A stretch of 64,000 nt of DNA from Amoebophrya sp. A120 (lineage: Eukaryota > Protista > Dinoflagellata). Positions 212-59,793 of the stretch are shown here, in pieces. How positions within the stretch are numbered: position 1 is the first letter of the stretch; each line of letters opens with the position of its first letter. The translations under genes and the position numbers were made by a program. Where the stretch lies: the NCBI GenBank assembly GCA_905178155.1, contig CAJINV010000019.1, positions 914,913-978,912 on the forward strand. Reading direction: 5' to 3'. Below the pieces are notes generated by a model, which was given only the letters and a program-made list of their open reading frames with translations, did no database searches and was not told where the DNA came from.

Positions 212-2314
212 TCACAATTCCTCCGCCTTTGCGTTCTTCTCGACTTCAAATTTTTCCGGCCACCCCCTCGGGCGGTAGTGGATGAAGACGTTGGCAAATT
301 CCCGGCCCGGGAAGGGTGTCGGCCGCCCGTGCGGTAGCGTTGCCGACTCGTACAGAATGATCTGCCCCGCCTTGTTGGGCACGTACTTCGTTTCCCCACT
401 GTGCGTCACCACCTGCATATGGAGTAAAAAAAGTTCGTCATCATAGTCACTGACTTGCAGTTTTTGCATGAGATTTTTTTATTTTTGCATCACAGGTTTT
501 TCGTGTATTGCTATTGCACAATTACAAGAGAAATCCCATGTAAAATTAGACTGTGATGCATTTTTACATATGACAGAAATCTTCGCATTGCCAAAACGCG
601 CATGAGTGATCGTGACGAATTTTTTTTGTTCGTCCATACTGCAACGGCCAGCTGTGGTCGTAGGTCTGCTCCATGCCGTGATACTGATCGTCCGGAAACC
701 CAAACTCCAGATGGCCCACCTCCACAATGGCGCTGATTGCGTGCGTGTCGCGCCGGTCGTATGAACTGCAAAAGTATCGTACTCGTACAAATGCATCAGC
801 ATTACAAGTTTCATCAGCGTGAGAAATAAAATTTGCAAATGCTGATTTACCTTGAAAAGAGAGATTTGCACTATATGCATGAATGCAATACGAGTGCGAT
901 GCTTTTGCACAGGATAGGTCGCCGTGCATCCGCATTTCGGAGTTTTGTCGGTACAGTCGGGTTATGAAATGCAAAAGCATCGTCCTCGTATAATTGCAAT
1001 CATGCATTACAAATCTTTTCCCTGAGGCTGCCGCTGAGGTACGTCAGCATTACATTTCTCATGCTGAGGAAATTTGTAATGCGTTTATACGAGTACGATA
1101 CTTTTGCACTGCATACGGATGCCGTACAACGCCGTCATCTCTAGTTCACTCGCCTCGAACCCCGTCCACTTTGCCACCACCGGCTGCATGACTGCCTGCA
1201 ACCTGTTCTTCAGGTCCTGGCGGAGCTCCACGAGCCACATGTCCGTTTTGCACGCCGGAATCGCCCCGTCGAGCCACCTGGTTTTCTCCGGTTTCGCGAG
1301 TTTGTTGCGGTTTTGCTGCCAAAACGCGCGGATGTCCCGCAACAACTCCGGGTCCGGGAAGTCTTGCACCTCGAAGCCCTCGGGCGTGAATTTCCGAAAT
1401 TCTTGCGTCTGCCTCCACATCTGCTGCATGTCCTCGTCGTGCGTTTTCTTCAATTCTTTCTCGTACTCCAAATTCAGCAGAATGTCGGTCAACGCGGTTC
1501 CGCCGGTGTGGTTGTAATAGGTACTGTGCTGCGAAATTGTATGGACAGAGGATGTTGTTGCAGCAACACTTCTACTAGCTCCTTCTATCGGCGAAGCAAA
1601 CGGGGCAATAAACCCTGGGGGCCAAATCGTGGTCAGGAACGGCGCTAGAGTAGACGACGCACTGGTGCCACTGTCGGCAGATGACAGGGAAATCGTTCCT
1701 GGATACTTGAATCTGCACCGGGTCGGGTTATAGTCTCGCGGGCTGTTCATTCGGTCGCAGAAGTGCGCGCGGTCGGCGTCGTCTTTTGCCAGCTGTCTCC
1801 GGCACTCGCGTCGCCAGTCTCCCACGGCTTTCTCCCATTTTTCCCCAGCGAAAAACTGCTCTTCCGTCGGCCGGTCCACCCAATCGACATCGCAATGGAT
1901 GGCGTTGTCGCTTTGATTCTCCAAGCCCTCGCTGGTTGCACTAGCTCCACCGTCGGCACAGGTACAGACCACGGCGCCGCTTTTCGCACCCTGCTTCACC
2001 GTGACGTGGAAAGTGTCCTTGATTTTTGTCGGCCGCTTCTCCTCCTCTTCCTTCCACCCATCATCTGTGCTTCTCGTTGTAACGCGAAAGATGTGCCCTT
2101 CAAAGGTGTCCTGGGAGGCAACGGCGCCGGGAAAAATCGTTTCGATCGGGACGGGCTTTTCCTTCGGGTAGTTCTCGGGAATGAAGAGGAGCTTGAGGGG
2201 GGAGCTTGCGCAGCTGTTCTTGAAGGTCAGCGGGTGGACGGGCTCGGCAGCGGAAGCGGGGCTGCACGATGTAGCAAGCAGTTGTAGAGTGGCCAGGAAG
2301 GTGGGGCCGCGCAT
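212..2314 (-). CDS. Secreted/ER 2OG-Fe(II) dioxygenase (prolyl-hydroxylase-like), copy A, ~518 aa, 3 introners
   Basis: N-terminal signal-peptide-like sequence (MRGPTFLATLQLLATSC). After removing 963-1115, 760-916 and 418-638 (each plus a 5-bp repeat) it reads LYGIRLYRQNSEMRMHGDRRDTHAISAIV...WPLQVV...ILYESATLPHGRP...FANVFIHYRP, giving an HxD...H facial triad. C-terminal AEEL resembles an ER-retention signal. Spliced length 1557 nt is divisible by 3. Confidence 0.8.
418..638. mobile_element. Introner (TIR TATGGA...TCCATA, DR CTGCA), copy-A specific
   Basis: Direct repeat ctgca at 413-417 and 639-643; imperfect ~25-bp TIR; empty site in copy B near 8930. Confidence 0.92.
760..916. mobile_element. 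Introner family F2 (TIR TGCAAAAGTATCGYACTCGTA), DR GGTCG
   Basis: DR at 755-759 and 917-921; inserted at the HGD codons; shared with copy B. Confidence 0.9.
963..1115. mobile_element. Introner family F2, DR CGGGT/CGGAT
   Basis: TIR tatgaaatgcaaaagcatcg / cgatacttttgcactgcata; splits YGIR|LY; shared with copy B. Confidence 0.9.
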
Positions 2315-4234
2315 CGTGATAGATGGTGCTACAGCTTATTTCATTCATCTAGTGTAATTGTTTCACTTGAAAGACAGTACGAAAAACCAAGACCAACTTG
2401 ATGAACTCGGAAAAGAAGATGCGGCAAAGGCAAGAATGCACTTCCGTGACATTGGTAGTAGAAAACTGCTTGTAGAAGCGAATACAACGACGGGCGTTCT
2501 CGCGCCAACATCTAGCCCTGACGCCACTCTCCTATTGTTCGTCACAGCTATTGAATTGCTCGCACGCCCCCTGCTCTCCGCCTAGGTTCATTCAACTGCT
2601 CGCTCACGGATCACAAACAGAACCAACGAGCACAAAGCTCATGCCAGACGACGTGACATGCTGTGTGTGTGCGGTGGCTCACATCCAGCAATCAATCCGC
2701 GCAGTCGGCGTTCGCCATCGTCACTGCGCTTCATCTTTGTATTACTCCTGTGCACACAGATCAAGCTGGTGTCGGCTGCCCCGGCAGCGCGCGAACGCAA
2801 GTCAGTTGTAGTGCGCCCCGCGGCAACCATCCAACGGCCCCGCGCAAACGCCTAGCTACGCCGACCGGGAGGGGTTGTAGGCAGTCGTCGGCCCATGCGA
2901 CGCCCGGCGCGAATAGGGGCGCGGGGATGGCAACAATCAAAAACCGAGACACTCACACGCGGGGCAGCGCTACGGCAAAGCAGGGCGCAAGGGCCCAACA
3001 CTCCACGCAACCCTGCTCGTCGGGGTGCTTGGGCGGCAATCGCCGCGCCGGCCCCTCAATCCTTCCAACGAACCAGAGAGGTGGGCGGCGAGGGGGAGAC
3101 ACAGAACCCCCCGCCCCTCGCGGCGGAGCCGGCCCACGCCGTTGCCTGTTGGCCGATGGAAAGCAAAAGAAACAGGGCGGGCGCGGCTCCGCTTCGCTAT
3201 CGCTTGATTCGGAGTCGGCGAGGTCCCGCATTTCGGCGGCGAGGAGGTACGGAGCCCGATAAACTGCTTCGCGGGGGCAAATCGCGCCACGGTCCCACTG
3301 CACGCCCTCGCATACGCCAGACCTCAGCGCCAGCCCGCCGAGAAAACGCGCCGGCGTGCCCGGCGAGGATGGAACCGGCACGCCGGCAGAGGCCCCGCCA
3401 CCTCGCGAAACGCGTCCCCGCTTGCAACTACGACGAAGCCATCCGGGTAGTCTTATTTCGAAAACGCTGTAAGTAGAGTAAAACTCCGTACCTACTATTT
3501 ATCTTGGAAATGTTGAATTCGCGACAATCTTGAGTCGTCATTCACAGTCTTTGTGGCATCGTTGCTCCTCAGTTAAATCATACAGTAGTTCTTCAGCGGC
3601 CATCAGAAAATTCACTCTGTCTTTGTAGTTTTTTGGCGTTTATTATTTCTTATTCTCGCCAGCTTCCAGACTCTCGTCGCGACCAAAATGGAGAAGAGAC
3701 TGGTTTCTCTCGCGCGTTTTGGATTCTACCCCTCGAGTGTGGAAAAAAGTTTTCTCAAATTATACAATTGTGCTGGAACGCTAAAAATCTAAAAATCATG
3801 CCAGAAGGTTCTCGAAATTTAAAAAAAAAAAATTGCCCTGCATGAAGGAGCTTGTTTTTATTCGTATGTACTATCAGGAACAAAATCCGTGCGTCAGCAA
3901 CACATTTCACGGTCGTCCCCACCGTATCTTGACTGCTGCGTGCTGCTCGACAATTCTCCCAGGAGATTATTATACACGACGTCTTGATCTTCATTATCTT
4001 TCGCGTTTGCCTCGCACACCTCCGCCAAGGCGACATAGACGTTTCTACTCTTTGCGTCGAAACAGAAAACCGCACAATGGAGGTCTTTATTTTCGCGGGT
4101 CCTTAACATCAAAAACTGCATCTCCGAAAATGTAGTTGCTCGTCGATCCCGTCGGGAACTACGAGAACATTCGTTCATCGGTGCATCTTCCTGGAAACAA
4201 AGAAAGCTCACCCACTTTTTCATCATCTTCACCT

Positions 4235-7200
4235 TCAATGCTTAGCCGCAGGCTTCAGCCCTTTCGGACTACTCTCCCCGTCACTCCACCTTTCCCCGCT
4301 TTGCAACGTTTTCTCAAAGTCTGCCATCCTCCACGGTTTACTGCACTTGAAATCGTTGCGGACGGACCTTAATTGCCGGAAAATGTCCTCTTCCTTGGAC
4401 TCCCCTAACTTCTTCGAAAACTGCTGCACGCGGAGAAAGTATGGATGTGTCAGGTTTGAAATCAACAAAGTTGAAATGATTTCTCATGCATAAATTGCAA
4501 GGCATGAAGTGCCTCTTTTGCAGGGATGGCAAGTGAGGCCGATCTTCAGCCTGTTTGGGGTCTGCGATAGAGCTGCTGAAGTAGCATCACAAAAGACGCC
4601 TTCTTTCCCACCTAGACAGCATGACAAACTGGATTTAAGCGGTGCCAAAATTTGTCATGCGCCGCTTGGAAATTGGGCTTCCAACTGGTATCGATTTCAT
4701 GCATTACAAATTATATCAACTTTGACGATTTCAATCCTGACACTACCATAGAAAGGGCGACGTCAATAACTCCTCCTCCGCGGTAAAGGGTACTGTGGGG
4801 ATTTTGTCCTTGCGCAAGTCAACTATTTTCTTGCATCGGTCGATCACCGCTTGCCGGCTCTGGTCCGACTTCTCCACCAGCGCGAGGGCGAACTGACACC
4901 CGTCCGTGGCGTACTCGTGGGCGCAGTAGATCAGCGTGGATTTCGGAATATGGTCCATCAACCGCTGCTTCAGGGCCCTGCGGTATATTGTTTTTTGAGT
5001 ATTTTATGTCGCGTTTTCAATTTTTTGAAAGCTCCCCCGCTGGCAACCGGAACGCCAACTGCTGGCGTAGCAAGCCGACACAACACCACAATAAACCGCA
5101 ATTGCACAGACAATGTTGACCTCTAGCTAAGTGAGAATTATGATGTGGGAGATGTTGCCTAAATGTAGCAACAAGAAGTAAGAAGATGAACATCTGTGTA
5201 CAACGATACACGCAAATTAATAACCGTAGTAAAAAAAAGTACCTGTAGCAGTCCGCTGCGTCGCCCTCAAAGAGCCTGCCGCAGCCCATGGGAAAGACGA
5301 TGTCCCCGGTGAACACGATCCCGTAGGATTTCAAAAAGAACCCGATCTGCCCTAACGTATGCCCCGGAACGTGGATAATCTCGAAGTCCAGCGGCCCGAG
5401 GTTCAGGTGCTCCCCGTGCTTGCAGAGCTCGGAAAAGTCCGATTCCTCCGCGAACTTTTTCAAATTCGGCAGCTCGATCCGTGACGCGTACATGCGCGGC
5501 CGGTGGTTGTTATTCGCTTTGAAGTTGTCCGCCGCAATCTCGTTCCACGCGCCCAGGTGATCCCAGTGCCAGTGGGTGATCAGCACGTCCGTGATGACGG
5601 AGCCGAATTCCTCCTTTGCACGCTGGCAGTACTCCAGGCCGTGCCCCTGCGGCAAGTCGATGGCGATCACGCGCGCGGCCTGGCTGGTCTGGCTCACGCG
5701 ACGACTGTTGTTCCTTGGAGGGCTGCTGTTGTTGGTGGTGGTGGTGCCCGAAGTAGAAGTAGGTTCTAATTGCTCTGGAACGTACAACAAGTACCCGTAG
5801 TTGTCACTTAAACACGGGAACTGGATCAACTTCAGCGTCGGATGCGACTGTTCCTTGTCAAACTTCTCCGCAAACTTGTTCGCCTGAGTGTAATGCGGCC
5901 GCGGGGACCCCTTCGGCACAGATTTCAGTGGCTCGATGTCCACCCGCTGCACCTCCGACCACGTCTGCCGCCCGTTGGACTTGTCCAGAAGCTTCTTGTT
6001 TTCCGAAGACGGGCCGGGGAGAAGGTTTGATGATGAATTACCTGCAGTAGTTGCACTCGTCGACATCATGGCCGCGGCGGAGGGGCGAGCTTTCGGCGAA
6101 AAACCACCAGTAGTATTCGAAGGCTTGATACTAGCCGGCGAACCAGAGTTCGAGCGGGCGAGAGCGGATGTTGAACCTCCGCCGCCGGAATTCGTGCGAG
6201 TCAGTCGCGGCGACTTGGTGGTCGACGTCCCAGAAGCTTTTGCCTTATTCTTCCTTTCCTCCTCGTCCACCACCCCAGTCATCGCCACCGCGTGCGCGTG
6301 CACTCCGTGCGAAACAACCCCGTGCCCACTGCCCATCTTGGACTCCAAAATCGTCAATTGGACCACCAACCCGTCCGGATCCCGAACGCATCGCAACACC
6401 GGGTCGAAAGTGGGCGAAGTCGAGATCTTGCGGAACTGCGCGGGGGAGACGCCGATGGAAATGGATTCAAAAGCGGGCTTCTCCGGGGATAAGTCATCCG
6501 GCCCGGCGAGCACGGGTGCTGTTTTGTCCATATTCCGCATGTGCTGGATTTCCAGTGTCGTGACGGGTAACTGGTACAGCCACTCCCTTTGCGCTTGGAT
6601 TTTGCTCTCCATAGTACCGATCTTGCTAAAGTCTGGCACTTTTTGCTTCATCTCATCCGTCAAATACGCGAAGAAATACAGGTCGAAGTTGTACGGCGAA
6701 ACTTCCTGTTTCTCCAATAAAGTCATGCCCAGCACCTCGGTGTAAAACTTCACACACAAATTCGCATCTTTCGTCCGGGTGGTGACTTGCCCGATCACCG
6801 GGTCTAGCATGCGCGTCAACGGGTTCCGCGCACGAAGTCCGCTCGACTGCAGCTTCTCTTCCGCTCGCTCGATCCGTTTCTTTTTCGTGGCGGTGTTCCC
6901 TTCGAAACTCGTCTGAAGCAGCTCAATCGGAAATCCGACCGGATCCGCGATGTGCTCCAAGTATCCGACGTTCAAAAACTGTTCCGCCTTCGCGTTTTTC
7001 TTGCCCAAACCGGTCCTCAAACAGTCATCGACGTCGTCTACCGCCAGCCCGATCTTCCAGTACAGAGGCCGCTGGAAGTTCACTTGCTGCTGGCTACGAT
7101 CCTTAGTCTGGGCCACGACCTGCTTCCCGGGGGGCAAAAACCGGAAGTTGAGCTGCGCGGAATGGGGCGAGTTCCGGAAATACAGATTGTCGATCGTTTG

Positions 7201-7344
7201 GCCGTTCGGAAAGGTCGCCGTTGTCTGCGCGACCATACCCAGCGACTCACTGTAGAACTTTAATACCTCGTCGCGAAACTGCCCAGGTACGCGGTAGGTG
7301 GCGGCCAGGAGGCGGGACGAGGTCTGGTTCAAAGCTGATTCCAT
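4235..7344 (-). CDS. Glyoxalase I-like (tandem VOC) plus glyoxalase II (hydroxyacylglutathione hydrolase) fusion, copy A, ~842 aa
   Basis: One uninterrupted ORF links VOC motifs (KFYSESLGM, YWKIGLAVDD, DPVGFPIELLQ, FYTEVLGMTLL, TTLEIQH, DPDGLVVQL) to metallo-beta-lactamase/GloB motifs (THWHWDH, PGHTLG, FTGD, GCGRLFEG). CAHEY and PTVP..EE...PFLR follow after a GT-AG intron (4978-5242) and introner 4440-4750. Spliced length 2529 nt. Confidence 0.88.
4440..4750. mobile_element. Introner family F3, DR GAAAG, copy-A specific
   Basis: ~38-bp TIR; DR at 4435-4439 and 4751-4755; aligns end to end with 19831-20138; absent in copy B near 13300. Confidence 0.93.
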
Positions 7345-8704
7345 TTTTTGTTTTTCTTCTTATGTGCGTGTGGCTGTGGGGGGGGTTAGAAACAATTCTG
7401 AGGCGTTTCTTATTTTTTATTAAAAATTTGGATTTGCGTAACAATGCTAGAACAGCAACAGAATGTGTGTAAGTAGGTCTACGGAATGAAATATTGATTT
7501 ACGGTCGGAAAAACATGAAAGAGATCACGACAAATTGCGTTCTTCCTTAGCGTTAATAGATCACTAACTCGGATGAGGATGTGGCACTCAAAGATCAACC
7601 TGGAGGCGAAATCAATAGCACAGACGTCGACATAATCTTAAGTGGGATCAGAATAGAAAGATCTTGACATGAACAGGCGCAAGTATTGAGGGAAATTGTC
7701 GATTAGAATTCTGTGTAGGAGCACCAACTGTCGACAATTTTGAGACAGTGTATTTACAATGGCATGCTGGGTCTGAGGTCGGCAAAATTGTTACTTAGGT
7801 TCCGCTCAAGATACCATTACCATTTCTTGTTCCATATCGAAAATAAACAGAAGATGCGTGAGACGGTCAAGGTACCGAATAGATTCTGATGGCGTGTGCG
7901 TGTCGAAGACAAAATTCATCATTATGAGATGAATGCACTCTCAATACCAAAATGTCGCCTTGAAAATTGGACGATTCTTGTCGCATTTCCAGAAGAGATC
8001 AGATATCTTCGCTCCCCAGCATGATCAATATCAATATCGGAGCAAAATGTTGATATAAGCTTCGTCCTGCTTCGCATCTACTTAGCTCGATGTAGTAACT
8101 TCCATGAAAAAAAGAACCGAGGTTTGCTAACAAGAAGCGTCCGCATAGTTCATGAAGCTTTAAACGCGGTTTTCGATTGCCTTTTTGTTCGGGACCCTCC
8201 GCTCTCCGACATTGCATGTCCTCACACGAGGAGAGGACTTACCGACCTCATTTTTGTTCCCAGGGAGCTCCAAATCCACTTCCACTCATCTCGCTTTCTT
8301 CACTACTGTTTTTCCCTGGAGAGAAATTCCCTAATTTTCAGCCAACCCTCTCTAGTACGTACACTCGAAACTACAACTAGAACAATCGATCCTCACTTTT
8401 TTACAGCAGAAGCTGGCTCTGATTGGAGACAGTTGTGCTTTTCTTGGCCACGCAACGCCGTGCGGCTGTAGCCACAACGACAACGAGCCGATCTTCGCAA
8501 GGGAAACTAAACCTCCTTCGCTGTCTTCTTGGAATCTTCATGTGTGACGCAGACAAGAATCATCAAGACCAGCACTTCAGCAAAGAATTCGGCGAAAAGT
8601 CCAGATCCACTGTAGTAGTCACCTCTGTCTTGCGATTGATTTTACAACTCGGCCTGAAAAAACTAACTCGTCGCCTTCAAGAACTCGTGCAAAAGACCAT
8701 CCCT

Positions 8705-11068
8705 TCACAATTCCTCCGCCTTTGCGTTCTTCTCACCACCTCCAGGCCGCCGCGCACCGACTTCAAATTTTTCCGGCCACCCCTTCGGCCGGTAGTGGAT
8801 GAAGACGTTGGCAAATTCCCGGCCCGGAAACGGTGTCGGCCGCCCGTGCGGTAACGTTGCCGACTCGTACAGAATGATCTGCCCCGCCTTGTTGGGTACG
8901 TACTTCGTTTCCCCACTGTGCGTCACCACCTGCAACGGCCAGCTGTGGTCGTACGTTTCCTCCATGCCGTGATACTGATCGTCCGGAAACCCAAACTCCA
9001 GATGGCCCACCTCCACAATGGCGCTGATTGCGTGCGTGTCGCGCCGGTCGTATGAACTGCAAAAGTATCGCACTCGTACAAATGCATTAGCATTACAACT
9101 CAACTGGAACAACACACCACTGGAACGATAGAAGAAGTGTGTTCATGTTTTGTAATTACAAGTTTCATCAGCGTCGGAAATAAAATTTGCAAATGCTGAT
9201 TTACCTTGAAAAGAAAGATTTGTATATGCATGAATGCAATACGAGTGCGATGCTTTTGCACAGGATAGGTCGCCGTGCATCCGCATTTCGGAGTTTTGTC
9301 GGTACAGTCGGGTTATGAAATGCAAAAGCATCGTCCTCGTATTGCAATCATGCATTACAAATCTTTTCCCTGTGGCTGACGCTGAGGTACGTCAGCATTA
9401 CATTTCTCATGCTGAGGAAATTTGTAATGCATTTATACGAGTACGATACTTTTGCACTGCATACGGATGCCGTACAACGCCGTCATCTCTAGTTCACTCG
9501 CCTCGAACCCCGTCCACTTTGCCACCACCGGCTGCATATGCATTGCAAATATGCCTGGGTCCGGAAGACTGCGAGACTTCTCATGCTAGTTTGGCACGAC
9601 TCTGAACTCTGTATTGCGCAGGGCCATCGGATGTTTCTCATCATGCGGAATACGCAACACAGAGCCGCGAGGAAATCTGTCATGCTTGCCGGTGCATTAC
9701 AGTGTGGTTATTTTTAATCATTGACATGCATCACAAGTTTCCAGACCCAGCAAATTTAATTTGCACTTGATACTGCATCATCTTTTGCAGCCTGTCCTTC
9801 AGGTCCTGGCGGAGCTCCACGAGCCACATGTCCACAGAAAATTTCCCGCACACGTACAAATGCAGTCTCTGCATAACAAAACTTGCCTTCAGTCCTAGTC
9901 TAGCATGACAAGTTGGACACTGCAAGTTAACGAAATTTGTCATGCATTTTGTACATGTACGGGAAAAGGAAATTCACATTGCATACCACATGTCCGTTTT
10001 GCACGCCGGGATCGCCCCGTCGAGCCACCTGGTTTTCTCGGGTTTCGCGAGTTTGTTGCGGTTTTGCTGCCAAAACGCGCGGATGTCCTGCAACAATTCT
10101 GGGTCCGGGAAGTCTTGCACCTCGAAGCCCTCGGGCGTGAATTTCCGAAATTCTTGCGTCTGCCTCCACATCTGCTGGATGTCCTCGTCGTGTGTTTTCT
10201 TCAATTCTTTCTCGTACTCCAAATTCAGCAAAATATCGGTCAACGCGGTTCCGCCGGTGTGGTTGTAATAGGTACTGTGCTGCGAAATTGTATTGACAGA
10301 GGATGTTGTTGCAGCAGCACTTCTACTAGCTCCTTCTATCGGCGAAGGAGCAACCGGTGCACTAAACCCTGGGGGCCAAATCGTGGTCAGGAACGGCGCT
10401 AGAGTAGACGACGCACTGGTGCCACTGTCGGCAGATGACAGGGAAATCGTTCCTGGATACTTGAATCTGCACCGGGTCGGGTTATAATCACGCGGGCTGT
10501 TCATACGATCGCAGAAGTGCGCGCGGTCGGCGTCGTCTTTTGCAAGCTGTCTCCGGCACTCGCGTCGCCAGTCTCCCACGGCTTTCTCCCATTTTTCCCC
10601 AGCGAAAAACTGCTCTTCCGTCGGCCGGTCCACCCAATCGACATCGCAATGGATGGCGTTGTCGCTTTGATTCTCCACCTCCTCGATGGTTGTACTAGCT
10701 CCACCGCCGGCACAGGTACAGACCACGGCGCCGCTTTTCGCACCCTGCTTCACCGTGACGTGGAAAGTGTCCTTGATTTTTGTCGGCCGCTTCTCCTCCT
10801 CTTCCTTCCACCCATCATCTGTGCTTCTCGTTGTAACGCGAAAGATGTGCCCTTCAAAGGTGTCCTGGGAGGCAACGGCGCCGGGAAAAATCGTTTCGAT
10901 CGGGACGGGCTTTTCCTTCGGGTAGTTCTCGGGAACGAAGAAGAGCTTGAGGGGGGAGCTTGCGCAGCTGTTCTTGAAGGTCAGCGGGTGGACGGGCTCG
11001 GCAGCGGAAGCGGGGCTGCACGATGTAGCAAGCAGTTGTAGAGTGGCCAGGAAGGTGGGGCCGCGCAT
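8705..11068 (-). CDS. Secreted/ER 2OG-Fe(II) dioxygenase, copy B, ~527 aa, 4 introners
   Basis: Paralog of 212-2314. Frame restored by removing 9829-9985, 9537-9772, 9314-9463 and 9051-9267, each with one DR (1584 nt). Confidence 0.8.
9051..9267. mobile_element. Introner family F2 (ortholog of 760-916) with an extra ~60-bp internal insert
   Basis: DR ggtcg on both sides; same TIRs as 760-916. Confidence 0.9.
9314..9463. mobile_element. Introner family F2 (ortholog of 963-1115)
   Basis: Near-identical to 963-1115; DR cgggt/cggat. Confidence 0.9.
9537..9772. mobile_element. Introner family F1 (TIR TGCAAAWATGTCTGGGTCTGGAAG), DR CTGCA, copy-B specific
   Basis: DR at 9532-9536 and 9773-9777; empty site in copy A near 1185. 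Confidence 0.9.
9829..9985. mobile_element. Introner, DR CCACA, copy-B specific
   Basis: DR at 9824-9828 and 9986-9990; imperfect IR (tttcccgcacacgtacaaatgca / tgcattttgtacatgtacgggaaa); empty site in copy A near 1236. Confidence 0.85.
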
Positions 11069-13097
11069 CGTGATAGATGGTGCTACAGCTTATTTCATTC
11101 ATCTAGTGTAATTGTTTCACTTGAAAGACAGTACGAAAAACCAAGACCAACTTGATGAACTCGGAAAAGAAGATGCGGCAAAGGCAAGAATGCACTTCCG
11201 TGACATTGGTAGTAGAAAACTGCTTGTAGAAGCGAATACAACGACGGGCGTTCTCGCGCCAACATCTAGCCCTGACGCCACTCTCCTATTGTTCGTCACA
11301 GCTATTGAATTGCTCGCACGCCCCCTGCTCTCCGCCTAGGTTCATTCAACTGCTCGCTCACGGATCACAAACAGAACCAACGAGCACAAAGCTCATGCCA
11401 GACGACGTGACATGCTGTGTGTGTGCGGTGGCTCACATCCAGCAATCAATCCGCGCAGTCGGCGTTCGCCATCGTCACTGCGCTTCATCTTTGTACCACT
11501 TCTCCTGTGCGCACAGATCAAGCTGGTGTCGGCTGCCCCGTCAGGCAGCGCGCGAACACAAGTCAGTCAGTGGCGCGCGCAGCGGCAAGCATTCAACGGC
11601 CCCGCGCAAACGCCTACGCTGGCCTGCAGGGCTTGCAGGCCGCCTCGGTCGCTCCTACGACGCCCGGCGCGAATCAATCGGGGCGAGGGGATGGCAACAA
11701 ACACAATCAAACCCAGACAAGGGGCAGCGCCACACACGGCAATCAAAGGGGGGCGCAAGGGCCCAGCCGCCCCACCCGACACCCGGGGGCATCGCACGGG
11801 CGGCCGGCGGCAATCGCCGCGGCCGCCCCTCAATCCAGCGGGCCGCCCGATCCAGGGTGGGATATGGGCGACCCGGCGGGGGGGGCGCCGAAATCGCCGC
11901 CCCTTACGATGGGCCGGGCGCCCGCTGTTGTTTCCAATCAGGAACGGCCCGGCCGGGGCGCAAAATAAGAGGGCGCGGGTGCGGCACTGATCAAAGTCGG
12001 CTGATCAAAAGCACACTGCAGCGGCCGGGGCATGCGGCATCGCGTGCAAAACCCCCCTGCGAAGCTGCCTCGCGCGCGCGAGCGAATCGCCCCGCGGCCT
12101 GACTGCGCGCCCTCGCGTAGTACGCTAGACCCCAGCGCCAGCCCCCGGAGAAACAGCGCCCGCGTGCCCGGCCGGCGACGAACCGCCACGCCGCGGCTGC
12201 CCTATGTACTAGGTGCGTAACCAGGCCGCAGAGGCCCCGCCACCTCGCGAACAAAAGCGTCACCGCTTACAACTACGACGAAGCCATCTTCCGGGCAGTC
12301 TTATTCCGAACACGCTCAAAAACTCCGCACCTACTATTTTTTGATCTCAGACTTAAAAACGAATCAATTCGCGACAATTTTGAGTCGTCATTCACAGTCT
12401 TTGCGCCATCGTTGCTCCTCAGTTAAATCATACAGTTCCGGAGCCATCAGAAAACTTCGTCTCTCTTTCTAGTTTTTTGGCGTGTATTCATCATTCTCAC
12501 CAGTTTCCAGACTCTCGTCGCGACCAAAATGGAGAAGAGACTGGATTCTCTCGCGCGTTTTGGATTCTACCACTCGAGTGTGGAAAAAAGAAGAAGTTTT
12601 CTAAAATCATACAAATGTGGTGCTGGAACGCTAAAAATCTAAAGAATATCATGCCAGAACCAGAAGGTTCTCGAAATTTGAAAAAAAAAATTCCCTGCAG
12701 CAATATATGAGCTTGTTTTTTTTATTCGTACGTTGTACTATCAGGAACAAAATCCGTGTGTCAGCAACACATTTCACGGTCGTTCCCGCCGTATCATGAC
12801 TGCTGCTGCTCGAAACTTTTCCCGGGAGATTATTATACACGACGTCTTGTTGATCTTCATTATCATTCGCCTCGCACACCCCCAAGGCGACATGGACGTT
12901 TCTACTCTTTCCGCCGAAACAGAAAACCGCACAATGGAGGTCTTTATTTTCGCGGGTCCTTAAGAACATCAAAAACTGCAACATCTCCGAAAATGTAGTA
13001 GCTCGTCGATTCCGCCGGGAACTACGAGAACTTTTGTTCATCTGTGCATCTTCCTGGAAACAAAGAAATCTCACCCACTCTTTCATCGTTTTCACCT

Positions 13098-16000: not shown

Positions 16001-16581
16001 TCATGCAAAGTGGCATGCCTAAAATGTTTCTCATGCGCAGACACAGTAAAGCCATTTTCTAATGCTATCTGGAAGTTTGTGATGCTGGAATCACGCAAAG
16101 GTAGTCGATTTGTGATGCGTCGCCACTGCCTCAAACAGCACTACACTACGAGTCCAAATTTGTCATGCAAAACAGCCAAAGCCTCTAGGTTTGTGTTGCG
16201 AAATCCCCATCTTGACTCTGGGATGGGGACGCTTTTACTCAGGATACCGGTCCTCAAACAGTCATCGACGTCGTCTACCGCCAGCCCGATCTTCCAGTAC
16301 AGGGGCCGCTGGAAGTTCACTTGCTGCTGGCTACGATCCTTATTCTGGGCGACGACCTGCTTCCCGGGGGGCAAAAACCGGAAGTTGAGCTGCGCGGAAT
16401 GGGGCGAGTTCCGGAAATACAGATTGTCGATCGTTTGGCCGTTCGGAAAGGTCGCCGTTGTCTTCGCGACCATACCGAGCGACTCACTGTAGAACTTTAA
16501 AACCTCGTCGCGAAACTGCCCAGGCACGCGGTAGGTGGCGGCCAGGAGGCGGGACGAGGTCTGGTTCAAAGCTGATTCCAT
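13098..16581 (-). CDS. Glyoxalase I-like plus glyoxalase II fusion, copy B, ~834 aa
   Basis: Paralog of 4235-7344; shares the GT-AG intron (13742-13991) and has three copy-specific introners; spliced length 2505 nt. Confidence 0.88.
13330..13538. mobile_element. Introner family F4, DR CCTCC, copy-B specific
   Basis: TIR tatgcaagaaaaaaactgtgtaagtgtaa; reverse-complement homolog of 39394-39618; empty site near 4775. Confidence 0.92.
14168..14389. mobile_element. Introner family F5, DR CCGTG, copy-B specific
   Basis: Near-perfect TIR tatgacagtgcacaac; reverse-complement homolog of 35009-35224; empty site near 5415. Confidence 0.93.
15964..16246. mobile_element. Introner family F6 (TIR AAAAACGTCCCCA), DR CCGAT/CCGGT, copy-B specific
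   Basis: Empty site ccggt in copy A near 7010; similar to 24529-24813 and 37916-38201. Confidence 0.9.
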
Positions 16582-17205
16582 TTTTTCTTCTTATGTGCGT
16601 GTGGGCGTGGGGGGGGTTAGAAATGATTCTGTAGGCGTTTCTTATTTTTTATGAAGAGAGGAAACTAAGAATTTGGATTTCTTGCGTAACAATGCTAGAA
16701 CAGAATGTTGTGTGTAAGTAGGTCTACTGAATGAAATATTGATGTACGGTCGGAAAAACTTGAAAGAGATCACGACAAATTGCGTACTTCCTTAGCGTTG
16801 CTTCTACTAACTCCGATGAGGATGTGGCACTCAAAAATCAACCTGGGGGCGAAATCAGTAGCAACACCGTCGAGATAATCTTAATCAATACATGATAAAG
16901 TGGGATCAGAATGACTTACTTCTTATCTTCCTAGAAAGATCTTGACATGAACTTGAACAGGCACAGGTAAGGGAAATTGTAGATTAGAATTCTGTGTAGG
17001 AGCACCAACTGTCGACAATTTTGAGACAGTATTTACAATGGCATGCTGGGTCTGAGGTCGGCAAAATTGTTAGGTTCTGCTCACGATACCATTAGCATTA
17101 CCATTTCTTGTTCCATATCGAAAATAAACAGAGGATGCGTGAGATGGTTAAGGTACCGAATAAATTCTGATGGCGTGTGCGTGTCGAAGACAAAATTTAT
17201 CATTA

Positions 17206-17525
17206 TGAAACAGAAAACCGACAGGGTTCTGTGACTGTGGATCGTGCAACGCATGAGAACACCAGGAAGATCACCAGCGACAGACTGCTACGCAGTCTCA
17301 GGAAAAAAGGTTGATCATACTAGCAGAAAAGGCAACAAGCACAAGGCTTGAGCCAAACACAGGCAGCGTTAGTTCATGTAGTCTCATCCGGATGAATAGG
17401 CATTGTATTAGCTAGACCCAGGTAACGAGTACGACCCTAGGTAGACGAGTTAACTATCTCCTTAGCTTTCATACGAGCACAAGCAACCACACGTCACGAA
17501 CCGAAATTCCCTTGTGGAATTAACA
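17206..17525. mobile_element. 320-bp solo-LTR-like insertion (TG...CA ends, 4-bp TSD ATTA)
   Basis: Absent from copy A (attatgagat at 7921); ATTA at 17202-17205 and 17526-17529. Confidence 0.6.
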
Positions 17526-46800: not shown

Positions 46801-47325
46801 ACCGTGCAGAAGACCGTCGACGTCAAGCTTTCGCGTTGGCGTTGTCTTCGGGGAGTAACTATGTGACCCGTCGACTACCTCTCTCCCCGGCGACATCATT
46901 GCTGCGACGAAATCGTCGCGGGTGATAGTGTCGGCGGCGTACGTTCCATGATGATGCGGGCCGACCTTGTTGCTAGCTGCTGGACCACCACGACTCGTTG
47001 CGAGATGTTGTTGGTGCAGTTGTGGCCCAGTAGCAGAAGTGCTGTCATGATCTGGCGTCCTGGCCCCGAAGGCAAATAAACCGTAACCGCTATGGTGGTC
47101 GGGAGTGGAATTTTTTCTATGGAGAGAACAACAACAAAAATCGTTGTCCATGATCTGCGACAGGAATAAGGTCAGCGCTGCGGCTGCCCATCGCAGACGA
47201 CTCGTCTTCTGCGCAGCCTTGGTTGCGGCTCGGCAGGACAACTGCATCATCTTCATCTCGATGAAATCTACTTGACTGCTTGGAGCAAGAGCAACAGCAA
47301 CAGAACTAGTACCGGGAGTAGACAT
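43881..47325 (-). CDS. Large low-complexity hypothetical protein, apparently frameshifted near 46770-46880
   Basis: A 981-codon open frame with no ATG at its 5' end overlaps a 194-codon upstream ORF in another frame; no domain recognised. Confidence 0.5.
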
Positions 47326-48894: not shown

Positions 48895-49451
48895 CTAATA
48901 CCCCATCTGGCGCAGCAGCACTTCCGTTATTAAGAGGAAACATCCCCCCTCCCCATATCGAAAAGGTATGTCTCCGGAAATTTGTGTTGCTGATTTGCGA
49001 CCTCAAATCACGTCTGTCCTGCAAGAAGGCATCTCCACAAGCTCCGCAGCATTGTGCAGGCGATTTGTGATGCTGATGGGCCTACAGCACGGACGTTTCT
49101 CATGCTAGACGCCTAGGCCAGAGCCTCTCTACTTAGGCTTAGTATGGGGCTGCATTCCTCTCCAGCAAGACAAATCTTATTTGTGTACGCAAATCCTGCA
49201 TCAGAAACTTCGTTTTGATATCGGGAGGGGGGATTTTTCCTTTTGTTATCCGTGTAGGTCGACCCTCCCGCGCAAGCCGCCGCCGTACTACTCACTTTCT
49301 CCTTGGTGCCATCGCGTAAAAACCGCTGCGAATCGAAGAAGAGCTCCGGCTTCTTCTGATACCGCCAGTACGAGTCTCGGACCTTGGTCACGGCGGGCTG
49401 TGTTGAAGAATTATTGTGAAGATTTTCTCTTCTTGCTTCTCTGGTCAACAT
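48895..49451 (-). CDS. Small hypothetical protein or terminal exons (~76 aa), revealed by an introner
   Basis: Removing 48928-49248 plus one DR gives MLTREARR...GSTYTEVLLRQMGY-stop. Confidence 0.5.
48928..49248. mobile_element. Introner family F7, DR TCCGT
   Basis: DR at 48923-48927 and 49249-49253; TIR ggaaa.atcccccctccc.atatc. Confidence 0.88.
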
Positions 49452-51080: not shown

Positions 51081-51120
51081 GAGTCACTGCTACAATGCCC
51101 TGTCTTAACAAAAGAACCTA

Positions 51121-52392
51121 GCTGTTTTTATTTTTAGTGCTGTTCGCTAAAATCAAAAATCTGTGTTGCATGATTACCAAAAGTCGTCCAGTTTTGACCA
51201 AGTCGCGAGGGAGTTTCTGACGCAGGATAGGCATGAGAGAGATCGCACAGAATCTGTCATGCTAGGTCCTGCATTCCAGACCTCATGGGTCATGGAAAAG
51301 CTGCATGACAAGTCGCGCATTCTTCCAGACCCAGACATTTTTGCATTGGATAGCGATCAGTGCGTCCGCCGGCCACTCCGTGTACCAGTCGATCACGCAG
51401 CAGTTCACCAAGCTGGGAAACTGGCGCAGCCGCGCCCGCCAGGAGTCCCCGATGGGCGAGAAGCAAAGCACGACCTTCATCAGGGTGCGGACCCGCGAGA
51501 TGAAGTAGGCGTACAGCTCCGCCGGCGCGCCGGACAGGCATTTTCCCTCCTGTTTCGCGGCGGGGCGGACCAGCTCGCACAGGTTCATGCGCTCGTCGGC
51601 CGCGAACAGGTTGGGCACCTCGCCGGAGTTCAGCAGGTTGTTGATATCCTCCACGAAACCCTCGTCTTTGATCTGCGAGTCCGTGAACAGGAACACCGTG
51701 GAATCGCCCTTTCCGCCAGCGTTCGTCAGGAGTTTTTTGATGTCCTCCCGGAACGCAATGATGTCGTAGCCCTTTGCGATCTCGATCTGGAAGATGGTGT
51801 AATCCGCCAGGAAGGACGCCAACTTCGTGCACGACTGGCGCCCGGAACCCCCCACACCCACCAGAAGCGCGTTGCCACCGGGTGTCCGAACCACCCGCGC
51901 AACCCGCGACAAGTGCTCCAGCATGTACAAGAAGCATACCTGGACAAGTATCAAGTTTTCACAGTACGTCCTGTCCAGTTGTTTGCAAAGTCATACGACC
52001 TCCATGTCCTCGATCCTATGCAATACAAATTTTTGCCTATTCCAGAAATCACATGACAAGTTCCAACTCTTCCAGACCCAGACATTTTTGCATTTGATGC
52101 CATGATCTGCTGCGCAATCACGGAGAGAGCCTCGACGTCGATTATCAAAAGGAAAAATCTCCCCTCCCCATATTGACAAGGCACGTTTTCGAAAATTTGC
52201 GCTGCTGATTTGTGACCACAAATCGTCTCTGTGTTGCATGAAGGCAACCCCACAGGCTCCGCCGCATTCTAGAGCCGGTGTCCCATGCTGTTGTTCCTAC
52301 AGTGTAGACTTCTGTCACGCTAAGCGCCTAGGCCAAAACCTGTCTACTCAGGCTGTTTTCATTTTTAGTGCTGTTCGCTAAAATCAAAATCT
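51121..52392. repeat. ~42-bp direct repeats (51121-51162, 52352-52392) flanking a ~1.19-kb displaced fragment
   Basis: gctgtttt(t/c)atttttagtgctgttcgctaaaatcaaaa(a)tct occurs at both ends. Confidence 0.85.
51353..52142 (-). pseudogene. Dynein heavy-chain fragments: AAA4 exon 51353-51939 and an AAA1-derived mini-exon 52100-52142
   Basis: LEHLSRVARV...GNALLVGVGGSGRQS...EDINNLLNSGEVPNLF...RQFPSLVNCCVIDWY and IDVEALSVIAQQI are axonemal dynein motifs. Flanked by truncated introners (~51154-51352, ~52016-52099, 52143-52354). No other dynein exons nearby. Confidence 0.88.
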
Positions 52393-54473: not shown

Positions 54474-56622
54474 CTACCTCTTTGTCCTCCACCTTTCTTT
54501 GACACTATCCGTTGAGAATTTAAATGCCCTTTTCCATATCACACGGCTAAACGCTTCACTTTTAAAAACTTCACTTGCTAAAAAAAATCTTTTTTTAGTG
54601 AGGTTTGGCGCTGTTGCTTACAGCATCAGCAGCTACGTGCCGACGACGGCATTGCGGCGCGTGCACCTTCTGCATCAGTGGAAGGACGACTGGGCCTTGC
54701 TTTGGGGGGTAGAGGTTGGCAGTTGACTAGTGAAGACGCCACGGCTTATAATTCTGAGAGCGAAACTCCCGAAGAGTCTTCATTTGAGTAAGATGAAAGC
54801 AAAGCGGAGACTTTTGTGTGCGAAAAAGTGAAAAAGTCGATGACTTGACAAAAAAATGAATCGCTTGTGGGTTTTTTGAGCGTAGCACCGGCCGAAGAAT
54901 CAGCAAAAATCCAGAAACTGGCTCCGGTGACAAACGATTCACTTTGGCCATATTTGGCCGCCGCAGCATCGGCGCAAGCTTCCAAAAACGAGCACTTTTG
55001 AAAATCATCGAAATGGTGCATCAAAGCGATGCTTTTGTGACAAGTGCTATGTTTTTGAGGCGTTTTGGGTTGGACTCAGCTCGTGGCTGACAAGCGATTC
55101 ACCTCACAAAGTTGGCCAGTTTTGGTGGCCCGAAAGTGGCTCTGTTTTTGAGGCCTTTTGGGTTGGAGCATAGGCGTGGCTGACAAACGATTCACCTCCT
55201 CGAAACAGCTGCTTTGCTTTCAGAGATCCAAAAAATCCCCCAAAGAAAATTTTTTTTAAGGAGTGAAGTTTTTAAGCGTGAAGCGTTTAGCCTTGTGATA
55301 TTCCAACAGTCGTGTTCTTCATTATCCGGCCAGGGGCGCTCCTCGCCGTGCCGCGCCTTTGCATAACAACCACACTCGGCAAGAGCCAAGCGGTGGAAAA
55401 CAAGCGTGTTATGCATTGTAGCTATGTCTGGGTCTGGAAGAATGCAGCCTGTCATGCAAACTCTCGATCACATAAAAATTCGTGTTGCATGAACGCCAGT
55501 AGTTGCCCTTGCTAGGGAAAAGCTAATTTCTCATTCTCATTCGGAATTGGCATGAGGATTGTCTTGCAAACTCTGTCATGCTTCTCTGTGCAACGCAGTT
55601 GCAGACACAGACCATGACCATGTGCGTGGTCCGCCGCGAGATGCAAAACAAATTTTGCACTCTTCAAGACCCAGACATATTTGGAATGCATACGTGTACA
55701 GGAACATCGAGTCTGTTGCTACTGGCTCCGCGCCTACTTCCTGTCGACGGCGATTCGCCAGTACCGCATCCCAGGCCTCGAGGTTCTGGTCGAATGCATG
55801 AGCGCGGTCGAACATAGACACGACGTTTTTCAGCTTCGTGGTCACCTCCCATTCTCCGAGGTCCTGATTGAAGCTTCTGGCAGTGGCAAACATATATTCC
55901 ATGTTTTCTACCTCGCTCACGCGCCACGAGCGAATCGAACGGTCGTTGAAGTCACGGCAGCCGAAAAACATCCAGTCCATCCTTTGCACCGTACTCGTGT
56001 CCCAGTATAGCGGCTGATTAAAGCCCTGGCCGCAGTCCGCAAAAGCAGCGCTCATGTCTCTGATACCCCTGGTATTCCAACGCGAAATCCGAAAAGACGG
56101 GACATACATCTGACTCCACCGAAGCGACTTGTATTCATCATAGTGGCAAAACTCTGGAAGCTTGTCAAGCCCGCCAACGTCCCACTGCTCCACCGGGCCG
56201 TATCTTGCCTCGGCGGCGTTCCGAAGATCCTCGTAATTTTGCTCGCTTTGATTCCCGTCTGGAGCTCTGATAGTTCTAGCTTCGTCAGTCCACCAAAGCT
56301 GCATAGCCTCCTCGAGTTCCTGCAGAGACCGGAAAGCGCGGAAAACTTGCTGCCTCCTGTGGCCTAGGCTCTTTTCTGCTTCCTGCAGTGCTGCCCGAGT
56401 TCCCTTCGAGACCCGGGCGAGTCTCCCGTAGTCCCGTTCGGTGCGGAGGAAGCCTTGGAAACGATTGTTAAGCACTTCTTGCACTACTGGATCATCTCTT
56501 CCAAGAAAAATAGCGCGGCCCCGTTGATCTCGATTGTTGTCAGGTTCAACCCTGGCAGCGACGACCATTGTGGTCGCCACAGCAAAGACTGTGAAGATGT
56601 TGAAGCTCAAACTACGCATCAT
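54474..56622 (-). CDS. Secreted DUF285 (BspA-family-like) repeat protein, ~363 aa, 2 introners
   Basis: Signal-peptide-like N-terminus; repeats ISRWNTRGIRDMSAAF, FNQPLYWDTSTVQRMDWMF and FNQDLGEWEV...VVSMF; spliced length 1092 nt. Confidence 0.82.
54537..55300. mobile_element. Long (764 bp) introner-type element, ~60-bp TIRs, DR TTCCA
   Basis: Ends tatcacacggctaaacgcttcac and gtgaagcgtttagccttgtgata; DR at 54532-54536 and 55301-55305; internal ~56-bp repeats at ~55050 and ~55143. Confidence 0.88.
55410..55692. mobile_element. Introner family F1, DR CGTGT
   Basis: F1 TIRs; junction FLYT|LVF in frame. Confidence 0.9.
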
Positions 56623-57447: not shown

Positions 57448-59793
57448 TCAGGAGTGCCCAGCCTTGCTCGCACCTCTACTTTCGTCCTCTTTCTCTCTAC
57501 CCACATTTTTAGCATTTCCACCGCTCCAAACCAGCCACGCCCTCAACCCCAGGCAAAACAGCGAGAACACGGATGCGATTCCGTTCACGATTCCTGCGAC
57601 GTAGAGACTCGGACCGGACTGGATCCCGTGGTAGAACCACAAGCCGCAGACGAATAGCCCGGCGCAGTTTTGCGACACCGACCCCATGAACAGCGGATTT
57701 TTCTCCTGCCACGCACGGTAGGAATACCGAACCGGCGCGCCCATCATGGTCAGGAAGGTGCAAACGCCGAGGGTGGAAAACAGAATTTTTACCTCGTCAA
57801 TCATCACGGTTTCCTCGCCATTCCGCTCTTTCGCCGACAGGCTGCTCCCGGAGAGATCGCTGTCAGAAGAAGAAGAAGAGCTAGTTGTACTTCCACCCTG
57901 GTCCTCCTCGCCGTTGCCTCCCCCGTCAAAAAGACAAGTGAACACGTATTACAATGAAAAATGCCCCCACCCCACACTTGGCAGCATTTGTATTGCAAAC
58001 CTTTCCAATAGAAACGCTTCCCGTCTTGCATATCTCAGGATCACAAATTTTCCATGCTGAATAGCGCGAATTTGTGTTGCGGAGGGGCCCAACAGCATCC
58101 GGATCTGTTATGCACAAGGCACCTTGCGCACCTAGATTCTGCATCAGAAAAGCTCGCAATCCTTTCATGCAAGACAAAAAGCTTTCATTTGGAAACTTTG
58201 CATGACAACCTTTTGCAAATTCGGGGGTGGGGGCACTTTTCACTGTAATAACACGTCCGGGCGGTCGTGAAAAACCGTGAGGAGGAAGCATCAAATGCAA
58301 AAGTGTCTGGATCTGGGAGAATGCAAGATCTGTCATGCATATTTCTCATGACCCATGATTGTCTGTGATGTATGCCCTACCATCACAGATTTTTAGAACC
58401 CTTCCTGATGCACCTTCCGCATGAGAAATGCCCTGTCCGTGCAGCACAAATTGTACCCCTCTTGCTGGTCATGCAACACAATTTTTTTTCGAGTCCAGAA
58501 ACAGCATGACAAGGAAGTTACCACCTTCCAGACCCAGACATATTTGCAATGCATAGAAAGACCAGCGTGACGAAACACAGATATAGAATCAAAAACAGCA
58601 ACAATCGCTTCAACTCTTTCTCATACAAGTCCCGCCGGTAGTATTTGCAGTAGAGAAACAGCTATCAAATGTAAAAGTGTCTGGGTCTGGAAGAATGCAA
58701 CTTGTCATGCTAAATCTGAAGCATGCAAAAATCTGTGTTGCATGACTACCAAAAGCCGTCCAGTTTTGACCAAGTCGGGAGGAAGTTTCTCATGCAGGAT
58801 AGGCATGAGAGAGATCGCACAGAATCTGTCATGCTATGAATGTCCTGCATTCCAGACCTCATGGGTCATGGAAAAGCTGCATGACAAATCGCGCACTCTT
58901 CCGGACCCAGACATTTTTACATTTGATAACAGCCACAAAAACCCGGTGGAAATCTGCAGGCAGCCCTGGGGCACGCCGGTGCGGAAGCCCTGGAGCAGAA
59001 AAAAACTGGTCCACGTCCAGCCATTCGCGCACTGCGCGACAAATTGGAGCGGGGGGGTTTCCAGTTGGTCCTCGAGGTGATCATCAAGATCTCCTTCGTT
59101 TTTGCAGTTTTTCAGATCGGGCTGGGGAGCCGCAGCAGTTGACTTAGACTTCTGTACCACTTCGCCGGCTTCTTGTCGTTGTTTTGTCCCTTGCGAAGCT
59201 GCAACAAACGCTGTGGTCGCGGCCGCATTATAGTCGTGCTCCTGAGCAGTGTCGACATTCATATTACCGTCAGGTGGCTCGACGGCGATAGCAACATGAT
59301 CTTCATTTTCTCTCGTTAAACTCGGATCTTTGTCACGAGAGCTTAAATCTGCTGGAAGAACATCCTCTTCATCTAGTGTCGGAACCACTTCTTCATCTGC
59401 GTCTGTCTCTACTTCCAGCAACACATCCGGTACCCCCGGGCGCGAAGAGGCAGCAGTGCCCCCGGTCGTGCTTGCGGAAGAAAGGTTTTCCGCTGAGATG
59501 ACCAGAGAAGCGGTGCAGGGCTTCATACTCATGGAGCAGGTCTCTGATGTTAAATACAGATTTTTAACGACTTCTGTGCTGCCTTCTGCGTGAAGATCCG
59601 TTTTATTCGTTTGTGCAGGTGCATTCTTTGGATGTTCATCCAGGAGCGCAGCGGCCTTGGCTTTATTCGCTTCTTCCTCTTCCCGCTTTCTCGTGCGTTT
59701 CCTGACGGAGAGACGATAAAAGACCTCCCCCGGACCACCGAACAGGAAGATGGGAAGCGTGATAACCAGAATGTCGTAGGTTAGCTGAGCCAT
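57448..59793 (-). CDS. SWEET/MtN3-type sugar transporter-like membrane protein, ~497 aa, 3 introners
   Basis: Two MtN3-like halves (LFGGP..F.R...PLQF..Q.ANGWTW and MMGAPV..SY.AW..KN...M...CGLWFYHG...VNGI) with about seven hydrophobic segments; spliced length 1494 nt; alternative start 59862. Confidence 0.7.
57947..58250. mobile_element. Introner family F7-like, DR ACACG
   Basis: TIR tattaca.tgaaaa.tgcccccacccc. Confidence 0.9.
58289..58555. mobile_element. Introner family F1, DR GGAAG/GAAAG
   Basis: F1 TIRs (one end CAT rather than TAT); frame restored. Confidence 0.88.
58663..58928. mobile_element. Introner family F1, DR ACAGC
   Basis: TIR tatcaaatgtaaaa.tgtctgggtc.ggaag; junction LWL|FLY in frame. 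Confidence 0.92.

Follow-up and report, generated by a model that had tools for sequence, protein, structure and literature searches.

The genome of the dinoflagellate Amoebophrya sp. A120 carries about 30,000 repeated introns, or introners, in 1,954 families, for which the text of PMC7789003 gives no known mobiliser or splicing route. A 64-kb stretch of contig CAJINV010000019.1 (positions 914,913 to 978,912, forward strand; called the window here, with coordinates counted from its first letter) raises the question of why the introners of seemingly unrelated families contain the same short internal motif, GCAT(G/C/T)A(C/G)AA, and what reads it. The original prediction had named two candidates, a mobilising enzyme common to the families and a host factor for which the motif would be a licence to be an intron. 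The motif proved genuine, recurs in another assembly, and is under selection; judged from sequence patterns, it is probably a double-stranded binding site through which the shared mobilising machinery of A120-type introners acts on the DNA, across families.

Enrichment, conservation, and spacing of the motif

The window contains 34 short elements (9,060 bp in total) with terminal inverted repeats (TIRs) of the form TAT…ATA and 5-bp direct repeats, the target site duplications (TSDs), on either side. All four stretches in which the recurrence of the motif had been reported (58663 to 58928, 22601 to 22870, 963 to 1115, and 4440 to 4750) are exactly such elements, with 3, 3, 3, and 5 strict matches, respectively. 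The strict pattern occurs 85 times in the window: 79 matches lie in the 34 elements (8.7/kb), four in 51,950 bp of other DNA (0.08/kb), one in truncated or other elements (1,416 bp), and one in the seven RNA-supported canonical introns (1,574 bp), six of which are free of the motif. Composition-matched mono-, di-, and trinucleotide shuffles gave expectations of 0.5, 1.2, and 1.5 matches (maximum, 5), far below the 79 found, and the claim that the motif is scarce in exons and intergenic DNA holds as well. That it is present several times in nearly every element depends on how it is defined. With the strict pattern, one or more matches are present in 32 of the 34 elements, two or more in 23, and three or more in 16, whereas an iterated weight matrix detects 168 sites distributed over all 34 elements (18.5/kb versus 0.35/kb) and yields the fuller consensus aaAT(T/C)TGT(C/G/A)(A/T)TGC. 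An unbiased k-mer ranking, executed after cutting 25 bp from each end, returned the same words, in up to 9 to 10 of 11 groups.

Since the motif had been chosen from the elements of the window themselves, an out-of-sample test was run. A metagenome scan with the end pattern of one end class (class D) provided the loci L001 to L144, among the matches listed; they belong to another assembly, comprise 766 kb including overlaps, and share with the window no stretch exceeding an element in length. Using TIR and TSD only, with the motif left out of the search, 428 elements were found in these loci, and the matrix trained on the window was applied to them. A strict match was present in 413 and a matrix site in 425 of the 428 elements. 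Strict density was 9.84/kb inside and 0.84/kb outside the elements, the latter falling to 0.22/kb (107 matches in 491,771 bp) when partial copies were masked. The class D end pattern gave no match (0) in viral contigs.

Conservation was determined for 22 clusters of at least four members, with the sites defined on a left-out member. Identity was 0.906 for the core, 0.718 for the flanks, and 0.717 for the degenerate middle base; the core exceeded the flanks in 22 of 22 clusters, its bases diverging threefold more slowly, and the fact that one base inside the motif evolves neutrally speaks against an alignment artefact. The constraint differs between branches. Specifically, the core-to-background substitution ratio was 0.45 on terminal and 0.16 on internal branches of 18 clusters, and 0.42 and 0.15 for the 14 largest clusters (0.19 on well-supported internal branches), while simulations of uniform constraint on the inferred trees gave 0.37 to 0.48, 0.31 to 0.39, and 0.39 to 0.58 for terminal, internal, and well-supported internal branches; star-tree simulations gave 0.53 to 0.59 on terminal branches and left almost no branches well supported. 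A host requirement for the motif in each intronic copy would lead one to expect equal constraint on all branches. Instead, propagating branches show roughly twofold stronger constraint than terminal ones, a pattern that fits selection on those copies that went on to propagate. As a rough inference, neutral decay after insertion over about 30% of the terminal length (about 0.02 changes per site) would yield it, and TSD mismatches (49 of 1,515 positions) are of the same order.

New relative to the original prediction is a rule for the spacing of the sites. The outermost inward-facing site lies 36 to 38 or 43 to 49 bp from the tip of the element, with a few at 56 to 62 bp. Same-strand pairs peak at a distance of 31 to 33 bp, as exemplified on the plus strand of 58702 to 58741 by TTGTCATGC (58702 to 58710) and CTGTGTTGC (58733 to 58741), which are 31 bp apart; the window contains 38 such pairs, in 8 of 11 groups, versus 7.9 expected. 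In the loci, same-strand pairs at 30 to 34 bp occupied a mean of 38 of the 68 clusters, against 10.7 (maximum, 20) when the layouts were randomised, and convergent pairs at 47 to 51 bp (about 48) were found in 28 clusters versus 4.7 (maximum, 12), with the best of any 5-bp window reaching 24 clusters under the null; convergent pairs at 16 to 17 bp were not significant there on the cluster level. None of the 12 labelled end classes is without the 30- to 34-bp pair, whose frequency ranges from 3 of 12 elements in class I to 25 of 25 in class H, and the convergent pair is mainly confined to classes D, G, I, and M and to unassigned elements. Near both ends of the elements, a short motif is repeated, conserved, and constrained in its spacing, as is characteristic of subterminal arrays.

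The description of the families as otherwise unrelated applies to their interiors and not to their ends. Spacer identity is 0.35 between classes and 0.67 within clusters, with 0.26 expected by chance. With ends and sites masked, the interiors fall into 141 BLAST components, the large ones of which stay inside one class (masking lowers the sensitivity); unmasked single linkage unites 416 of 428 elements, and short modules are common to classes G, H, and I. Every class has TAT…ATA ends, a 5-bp TSD, and, mostly, an A-rich tract at positions 11 to 14, for which reason all end classes look like one mobilisation system. The end consensus is TATCAAATGCAAAAA, with A at frequencies of 0.87 to 0.93 in positions 11 to 13 (TAT was a requirement of the finder); the A run is absent from the ends of classes C, G, and I.

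Splicing and the level at which the motif acts

Splicing was read from assembled contigs of the runs X1 to X4 (presumed RNA, one sample), which cover two stretches with 25 elements. Their joints skip at least 21 of the 25, and among the joints listed the skipped length equals that of the element plus 5 in 21 of 21 cases; the same contigs also lack seven ordinary minus-strand GT-AG introns. At four joints with an informative TSD mismatch nearby, the transcript retains at least four of the five bases of the upstream TSD copy, and the intron therefore begins at TAT or one base earlier and ends 4 to 5 bases past ATA. The raw runs X7 to X9, with 11, 0, and 397 mapped reads, all partial, gave no splicing evidence. 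Elements poor in sites, overall or at one end, are spliced nonetheless: those at 9051 and 36932 have one internal site, and that at 38260 has no strong site at its left end and is still removed precisely despite a foreign interior.

A coding strand could be assigned to 303 of 427 elements of the loci. All 14 largest clusters lie both ways relative to transcription, and class H, despite the almost uniform orientation of its sites, is among them (6/6 and 5/3 in reading frames); two small clusters are one-sided (4/0 each). As predicted, the sites are arrayed in both orientations inside the elements. Relative to the transcript, 744 sites lie on one strand and 676 on the other (P = 0.075), which is no clear bias, and 37 elements bear sites on one strand only (21 on one and 16 on the other). 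Neither the fixed strand nor the fixed position relative to the transcript expected of a strand-specific splicing signal, such as a branch point or enhancer, was found. Arm-to-arm covariation at the degenerate base of the outer sites was absent (0.38 versus 0.36 permuted; n = 194), most TIR positions 9 to 30 do covary between the arms, and only 23 of 230 symmetric outer site pairs are in exact register. The notion of a licence conferred through a splicing factor is thus disfavoured by the two orientations, the lack of arm covariation, the splicing of one-site elements, and the stronger constraint on propagating branches, as well as by the six of seven canonical introns without motif.

The explanation that we favour, binding of the mobilising machinery to the double-stranded motif, might work as follows. 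An accessory domain of a transposase or a partner protein would need the motif to copy the elements; it would bind the sites, probably as a cooperative pair 31 to 33 bp (approximately three helical turns) apart, and the first site, 36 to 38 or 43 to 49 bp from the tip, may assist synapsis of the ends. Cleavage at TAT and insertion with a 5-bp stagger would follow, carried out by a DDE enzyme. Where its array is intact, a copy would out-replicate others, so that motif and spacing are retained in interiors that have otherwise become unrecognisable. For splicing, the elements would depend on their paired ends and not on the motif, a division that we regard as likely. The mobilising enzyme of the original prediction fits the spacing, the two orientations, and the stronger constraint on propagating lineages, although no protein was found for it.

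Among the alternatives, the one that survives best, though we consider it doubtful, is the licence of the original prediction moved to the level of DNA: a factor of host or domesticated origin, bound to the DNA, would recognise the motif either way and tag the element so that it is cut out of the nascent transcript, possibly mobilising it as well. It would account for the constraint persisting on terminal branches (0.42), and 257 of the 303 elements interrupting a reading frame have a site within 65 nucleotides of both ends, with only two having none near either end; moreover, these introns have no fixed splice dinucleotides, and U1 small nuclear RNA (snRNA) was not detected in Amoebophrya A25 and A120 according to the text of PMC7789003. 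It is opposed by the relaxation of the constraint on terminal branches, by the splicing of elements that have a single internal site or no strong site at one end, and by the 44 of 303 elements without a site near one end.

A role in RNA, in which either the hairpin that brings the splice sites together would be lengthened by inverted copies or one strand would be read by a small RNA or an RNA-binding factor, appears improbable. Predicted folds place the two ends in pairing in 149 of 150 cases, pair 252 of 705 sites (36%) with another site, as inverted copies will, and pair 79% of the core bases versus 62% of those elsewhere; the slight excess of one strand and the two one-sided clusters point the same way. 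However, a hairpin requires complementarity and not one fixed sequence across families, the arms neither covary at the outer sites nor, for the most part, hold them in exact register, and elements with sites on only one or only the other strand exist. Pairing among the sites of class H is impossible because they are co-oriented, and elements of this class occur in either orientation relative to the transcript.

We give equally little credence to the sites binding a host chromatin or transcription factor that aids survival of the elements outside the transposition reaction, through positioning, escape from silencing, or protection. Orientation independence and the degenerate, DNA-like consensus would suit such a factor, and the GCATG core presumably recalls transcription factor sites of the bZIP, TALE homeodomain, and ApiAP2 types. 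The motif is, however, nearly absent from intergenic DNA and exons (0.08/kb), where ordinary targets would lie, and the distance of the sites from the element tips is fixed. An ApiAP2-type palindrome, TGCATGCA, was considered as the motif itself and rejected, with only three occurrences in 106 kb of elements. Least probable is a relic, without present function, of descent from one repeat-rich ancestor, for which the common end plan, the modules shared by classes G, H, and I, and the unmasked linkage of 416 of 428 elements could be cited but which the threefold conservation over neighbouring bases, the neutral base inside the motif, and the spacers that diverged while the spacing was kept all contradict.

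Several results weigh against binding by a mobilising machinery. Neither the window nor the 766 kb of loci, together well under 1% of a genome of some 120 Mb, yielded a transposase or an autonomous element, and the text of PMC7789003, which likewise gives no transposase for A120, opposes the idea that transposases mobilise these introns in general. The pairing of sites and of core bases in the predicted folds, described above, also counts against it. The terminal branches are still constrained (0.42, not 1), which leaves room for host selection, although terminal constraint is expected given the sparse sampling of copies. Star-tree simulations also lower the internal ratio (0.24 to 0.36), and the core columns were picked by majority presence, a choice lying outside the simulations, from sparsely sampled copies. 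An age test via TSD and TAT mismatches was powerless, mismatched copies not being more diverged elsewhere. The loci are enriched for class D (185 of 428 elements), by whose end pattern they were retrieved, and their clusters are not fully independent of each other. As for helical phasing, a fit of periods from 8 to 14 bp to pairs up to 100 bp apart was best at 10.4 bp (0.32 versus a null maximum of 0.15). Without the pairs at 29 to 35 bp, periods of 10.3 to 10.5 bp still exceed the null maximum (0.21 to 0.23 versus 0.18), but 13.6 bp fits better, and no periodicity is seen among same-strand pairs (0.08). Whole helical turns would suit the observed spacings, but because the 10.4-bp peak rests largely on the 31-bp class, the data do not establish 10.5-bp phasing as a general rule outside a few fixed spacings.

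Anatomy of the elements in the window

The elements have TIRs, a TSD of fixed length, dispersed copies, and no coding capacity, as do miniature inverted-repeat transposable elements. Besides these 34, the window carries three truncated elements and one outlier of 764 bp. In all classes, TIR positions 4 to 9 change faster than the interiors (ratio, 1.3); they are often unlike between the two ends of an element and are drawn from a few recurring words, so that the end looks bipartite, with a TAT tip, a free spacer, and an A-rich block. In the loci, element lengths cluster near 110, 150, 210, 260, and 315 bp, and these steps of about 50 bp, which are class driven, are close to the 48- to 50-bp convergent spacing. 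Approximately 23% of 454 loci elements have an imperfect TSD, yet these are not more diverged elsewhere.

Site numbers in the window refer to the matrix. Of the class D elements, those at 21714 to 21977 (six sites), 22601 to 22870 (seven sites, three strict matches), 22919 to 23193 (seven), 40010 to 40270 (five), and 41508 to 41759 (four) are spliced out, the second of them being oriented opposite to its neighbours at 21714 and 22919. The remaining five are located at 9537 to 9772 (six sites, one inside the TIR), 24114 to 24379 (six), 55410 to 55692 (six matrix sites, no strict match), 58289 to 58555 (seven, with a left end reading CAT), and 58663 to 58928 (six, with three strict matches). Class H comprises 15964 to 16246, with seven co-oriented sites, 24529 to 24813, with six at spacings of 30-49-33-50-31 bp, and 37916 to 38201, with six and a degenerate TSD; in all three the sites are co-oriented, and the first and the last are spliced out. 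Class K includes 41039 to 41368, spliced out, with five sites (58>, 90>, 148>, <248, and <280), 48928 to 49248, also spliced out, the six sites of which form three pairs 32 to 33 bp apart, and 57947 to 58250, with nine sites.

Four elements belong to class F: 13330 to 13538 (five sites), 21413 to 21636 (seven sites, degenerate TSD), and 39394 to 39618 (five sites, reversed relative to that at 13330), all spliced out, and 29127 to 29338 (five sites). Class C is represented at 4440 to 4750, with five sites and five strict matches, where the centre of the first site lies 46 bp from each end, and at 19831 to 20138 (five sites, spliced out). The class G elements at 14168 to 14389 (three sites) and 35009 to 35224 (five), the class I element at 23567 to 23806 (four sites in steps of 48 to 50 bp), and the class J element at 18669 to 18848 (three) are spliced out. 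Class A was found at 418 to 638 (three matrix sites, no strict match, TSD CTGCA) and class E at 9829 to 9985 (three sites, left end TGT).

Class B is partly tied to a tandem duplication within positions 1 to 17000, which affects a group of genes including a glyoxalase/metallo-beta-lactamase gene and in which some introner insertions are common to the copies and others copy specific. The element at 760 to 916 (one site) is the same insertion, in a duplicated gene, as that at 9051 to 9267, which carries a 63-bp insertion at its sole motif site and is spliced out (joint 9045-9268); likewise, that at 963 to 1115 (four sites, three strict matches) corresponds to that at 9314 to 9463 (four sites, spliced out). 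These are the only two shared-insertion pairs, both within the window and too few for a test. The two other members of the class are 36932 to 37094, with one internal site and one inside the TIR, spliced out, and 38260 to 39305, with a foreign interior of about 900 bp and four sites, all near the right end and none strong at the left, which is spliced out whole (joint 38254-39306). Elements with 0.5 to 0.9 kb of foreign sequence are also present in the loci (L017:505-1608, L023:632-1465, and L067:11017-11988).

Half-decayed or truncated elements are located in a dynein heavy-chain gene. The right end of the one at 51949 to 52099 is still that of class D, and at 51940 the edge of the exon reads like a canonical acceptor; those at 51100 to 51352 and 52143 to 52390 have a 40-bp breakpoint sequence in common. 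The canonical GT-AG intron at 37375 to 37569 contains one strict motif and a 22- to 26-bp match to element interiors (E = 3e-4), and it is possibly a decayed introner turned canonical, or merely reflects the motif match. The 764-bp outlier, at 54537 to 55300, is a TAT…ATA element with TIRs of about 60 bp and a perfect 5-bp TSD, overlapping the last codons of a DUF285 open reading frame (ORF). It has no motif site scoring at least 9 and no relative among loci L001 to L144, and it bears a repeat of its own, similar to TGACAA-CGATTCA, in four copies and both orientations. If spliced, it would be a natural counter-example to the licence idea.

Known transposons and the search for a mobiliser

According to the text of PMC7789003 (Farhat et al. 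2021), the inverted repeats of A120 introners start with TAT, followed by seven variable bases and at least three As, and the introners are about 240 nucleotides long, with direct repeats of 3 to 5 nucleotides and non-canonical splice sites, in co-oriented genes. The elements of the window match this plan in the TAT, the seven variable bases, and the A run, in the direct repeats, and in non-canonical splicing; figures aside, that text gives terminal repeats only, with no internal motif or spacing, and describes no relationship between singletons. Nor was a description of the motif or its spacing found in the literature searched, which included the supplement text of PMC7789003, PMC12130899 with its supplements, and PMC11453091, again figures aside.

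Subterminal arrays of binding sites are established for cut-and-paste transposons in the parts of PMC11707139 considered, where piggyBat has GCGGGA at bp 11, 55, and 99 of its left end and cited titles name Tol2, Tag1, Ac, and Tn7. The likeness is that short motifs recur within both ends, facing either way and at defined distances. Those arrays, however, are specific to one element with a known transposase, whereas here the motif occurs in at least 12 end classes, its binding is predicted, and it spans whole elements of 110 to 330 bp that have non-alignable interiors and are introns. Subterminal arrays as such are thus known from other transposons, and this motif with its spacing is new as far as these sources go.

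By analogy, the TA..TA ends point to integrase-like elements of the IS3EU/GingerRoot type, which have the same termini in the portions of PMC10045372, PMC6839031, PMC2836005, and PMC12130899 considered; their usual TSD is 6 bp, versus 5 bp in the window. The TSD of Ginger2/TDD, at 4 to 5 bp (5 bp for TDD-4/5), fits, but their termini, as given in the sources considered, read TGTNR and not TAT. In supplementary file 8 of PMC12130899, as far as covered, most A120 introner families are TIR DNA elements of unknown superfamily, and family 38 is annotated as Ginger-like, with TA/TA termini and a 5-bp TSD, which makes it the best lead to a candidate parent element. In our own sequences, a Pfam search with the ORFs of two long elements of the window gave no match, and a crude screen of 994 ORFs for integrase motifs gave chance-like matches only. 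A weak DDE_Tnp_4 match (E = 0.076) in the ORF at 43881 to 46874 was rejected; it falls on an acidic-run stretch, with no TIRs or motif nearby and no match in the Atlas.

A bolder version, which we think unlikely, would have one DNA-binding protein, perhaps a domesticated integrase-like transposase, read a code of spaced motifs common to all families, mobilise tens of thousands of introners that look unrelated, and flag them on the DNA for U1-independent removal from RNA; any sequence gaining TAT ends and the code would then become a mobile intron. Independently of it, a common selected motif with a spacing rule collapses many of the 1,954 A120 families into one system and sets two candidate signals apart, namely, paired ends for splicing and internal sites for mobility. 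The double-stranded 31-bp pair is a ready bait for the protein and the motif a route to the autonomous parent in the full genome, and the search for the mobiliser of these introners thereby becomes directly testable.

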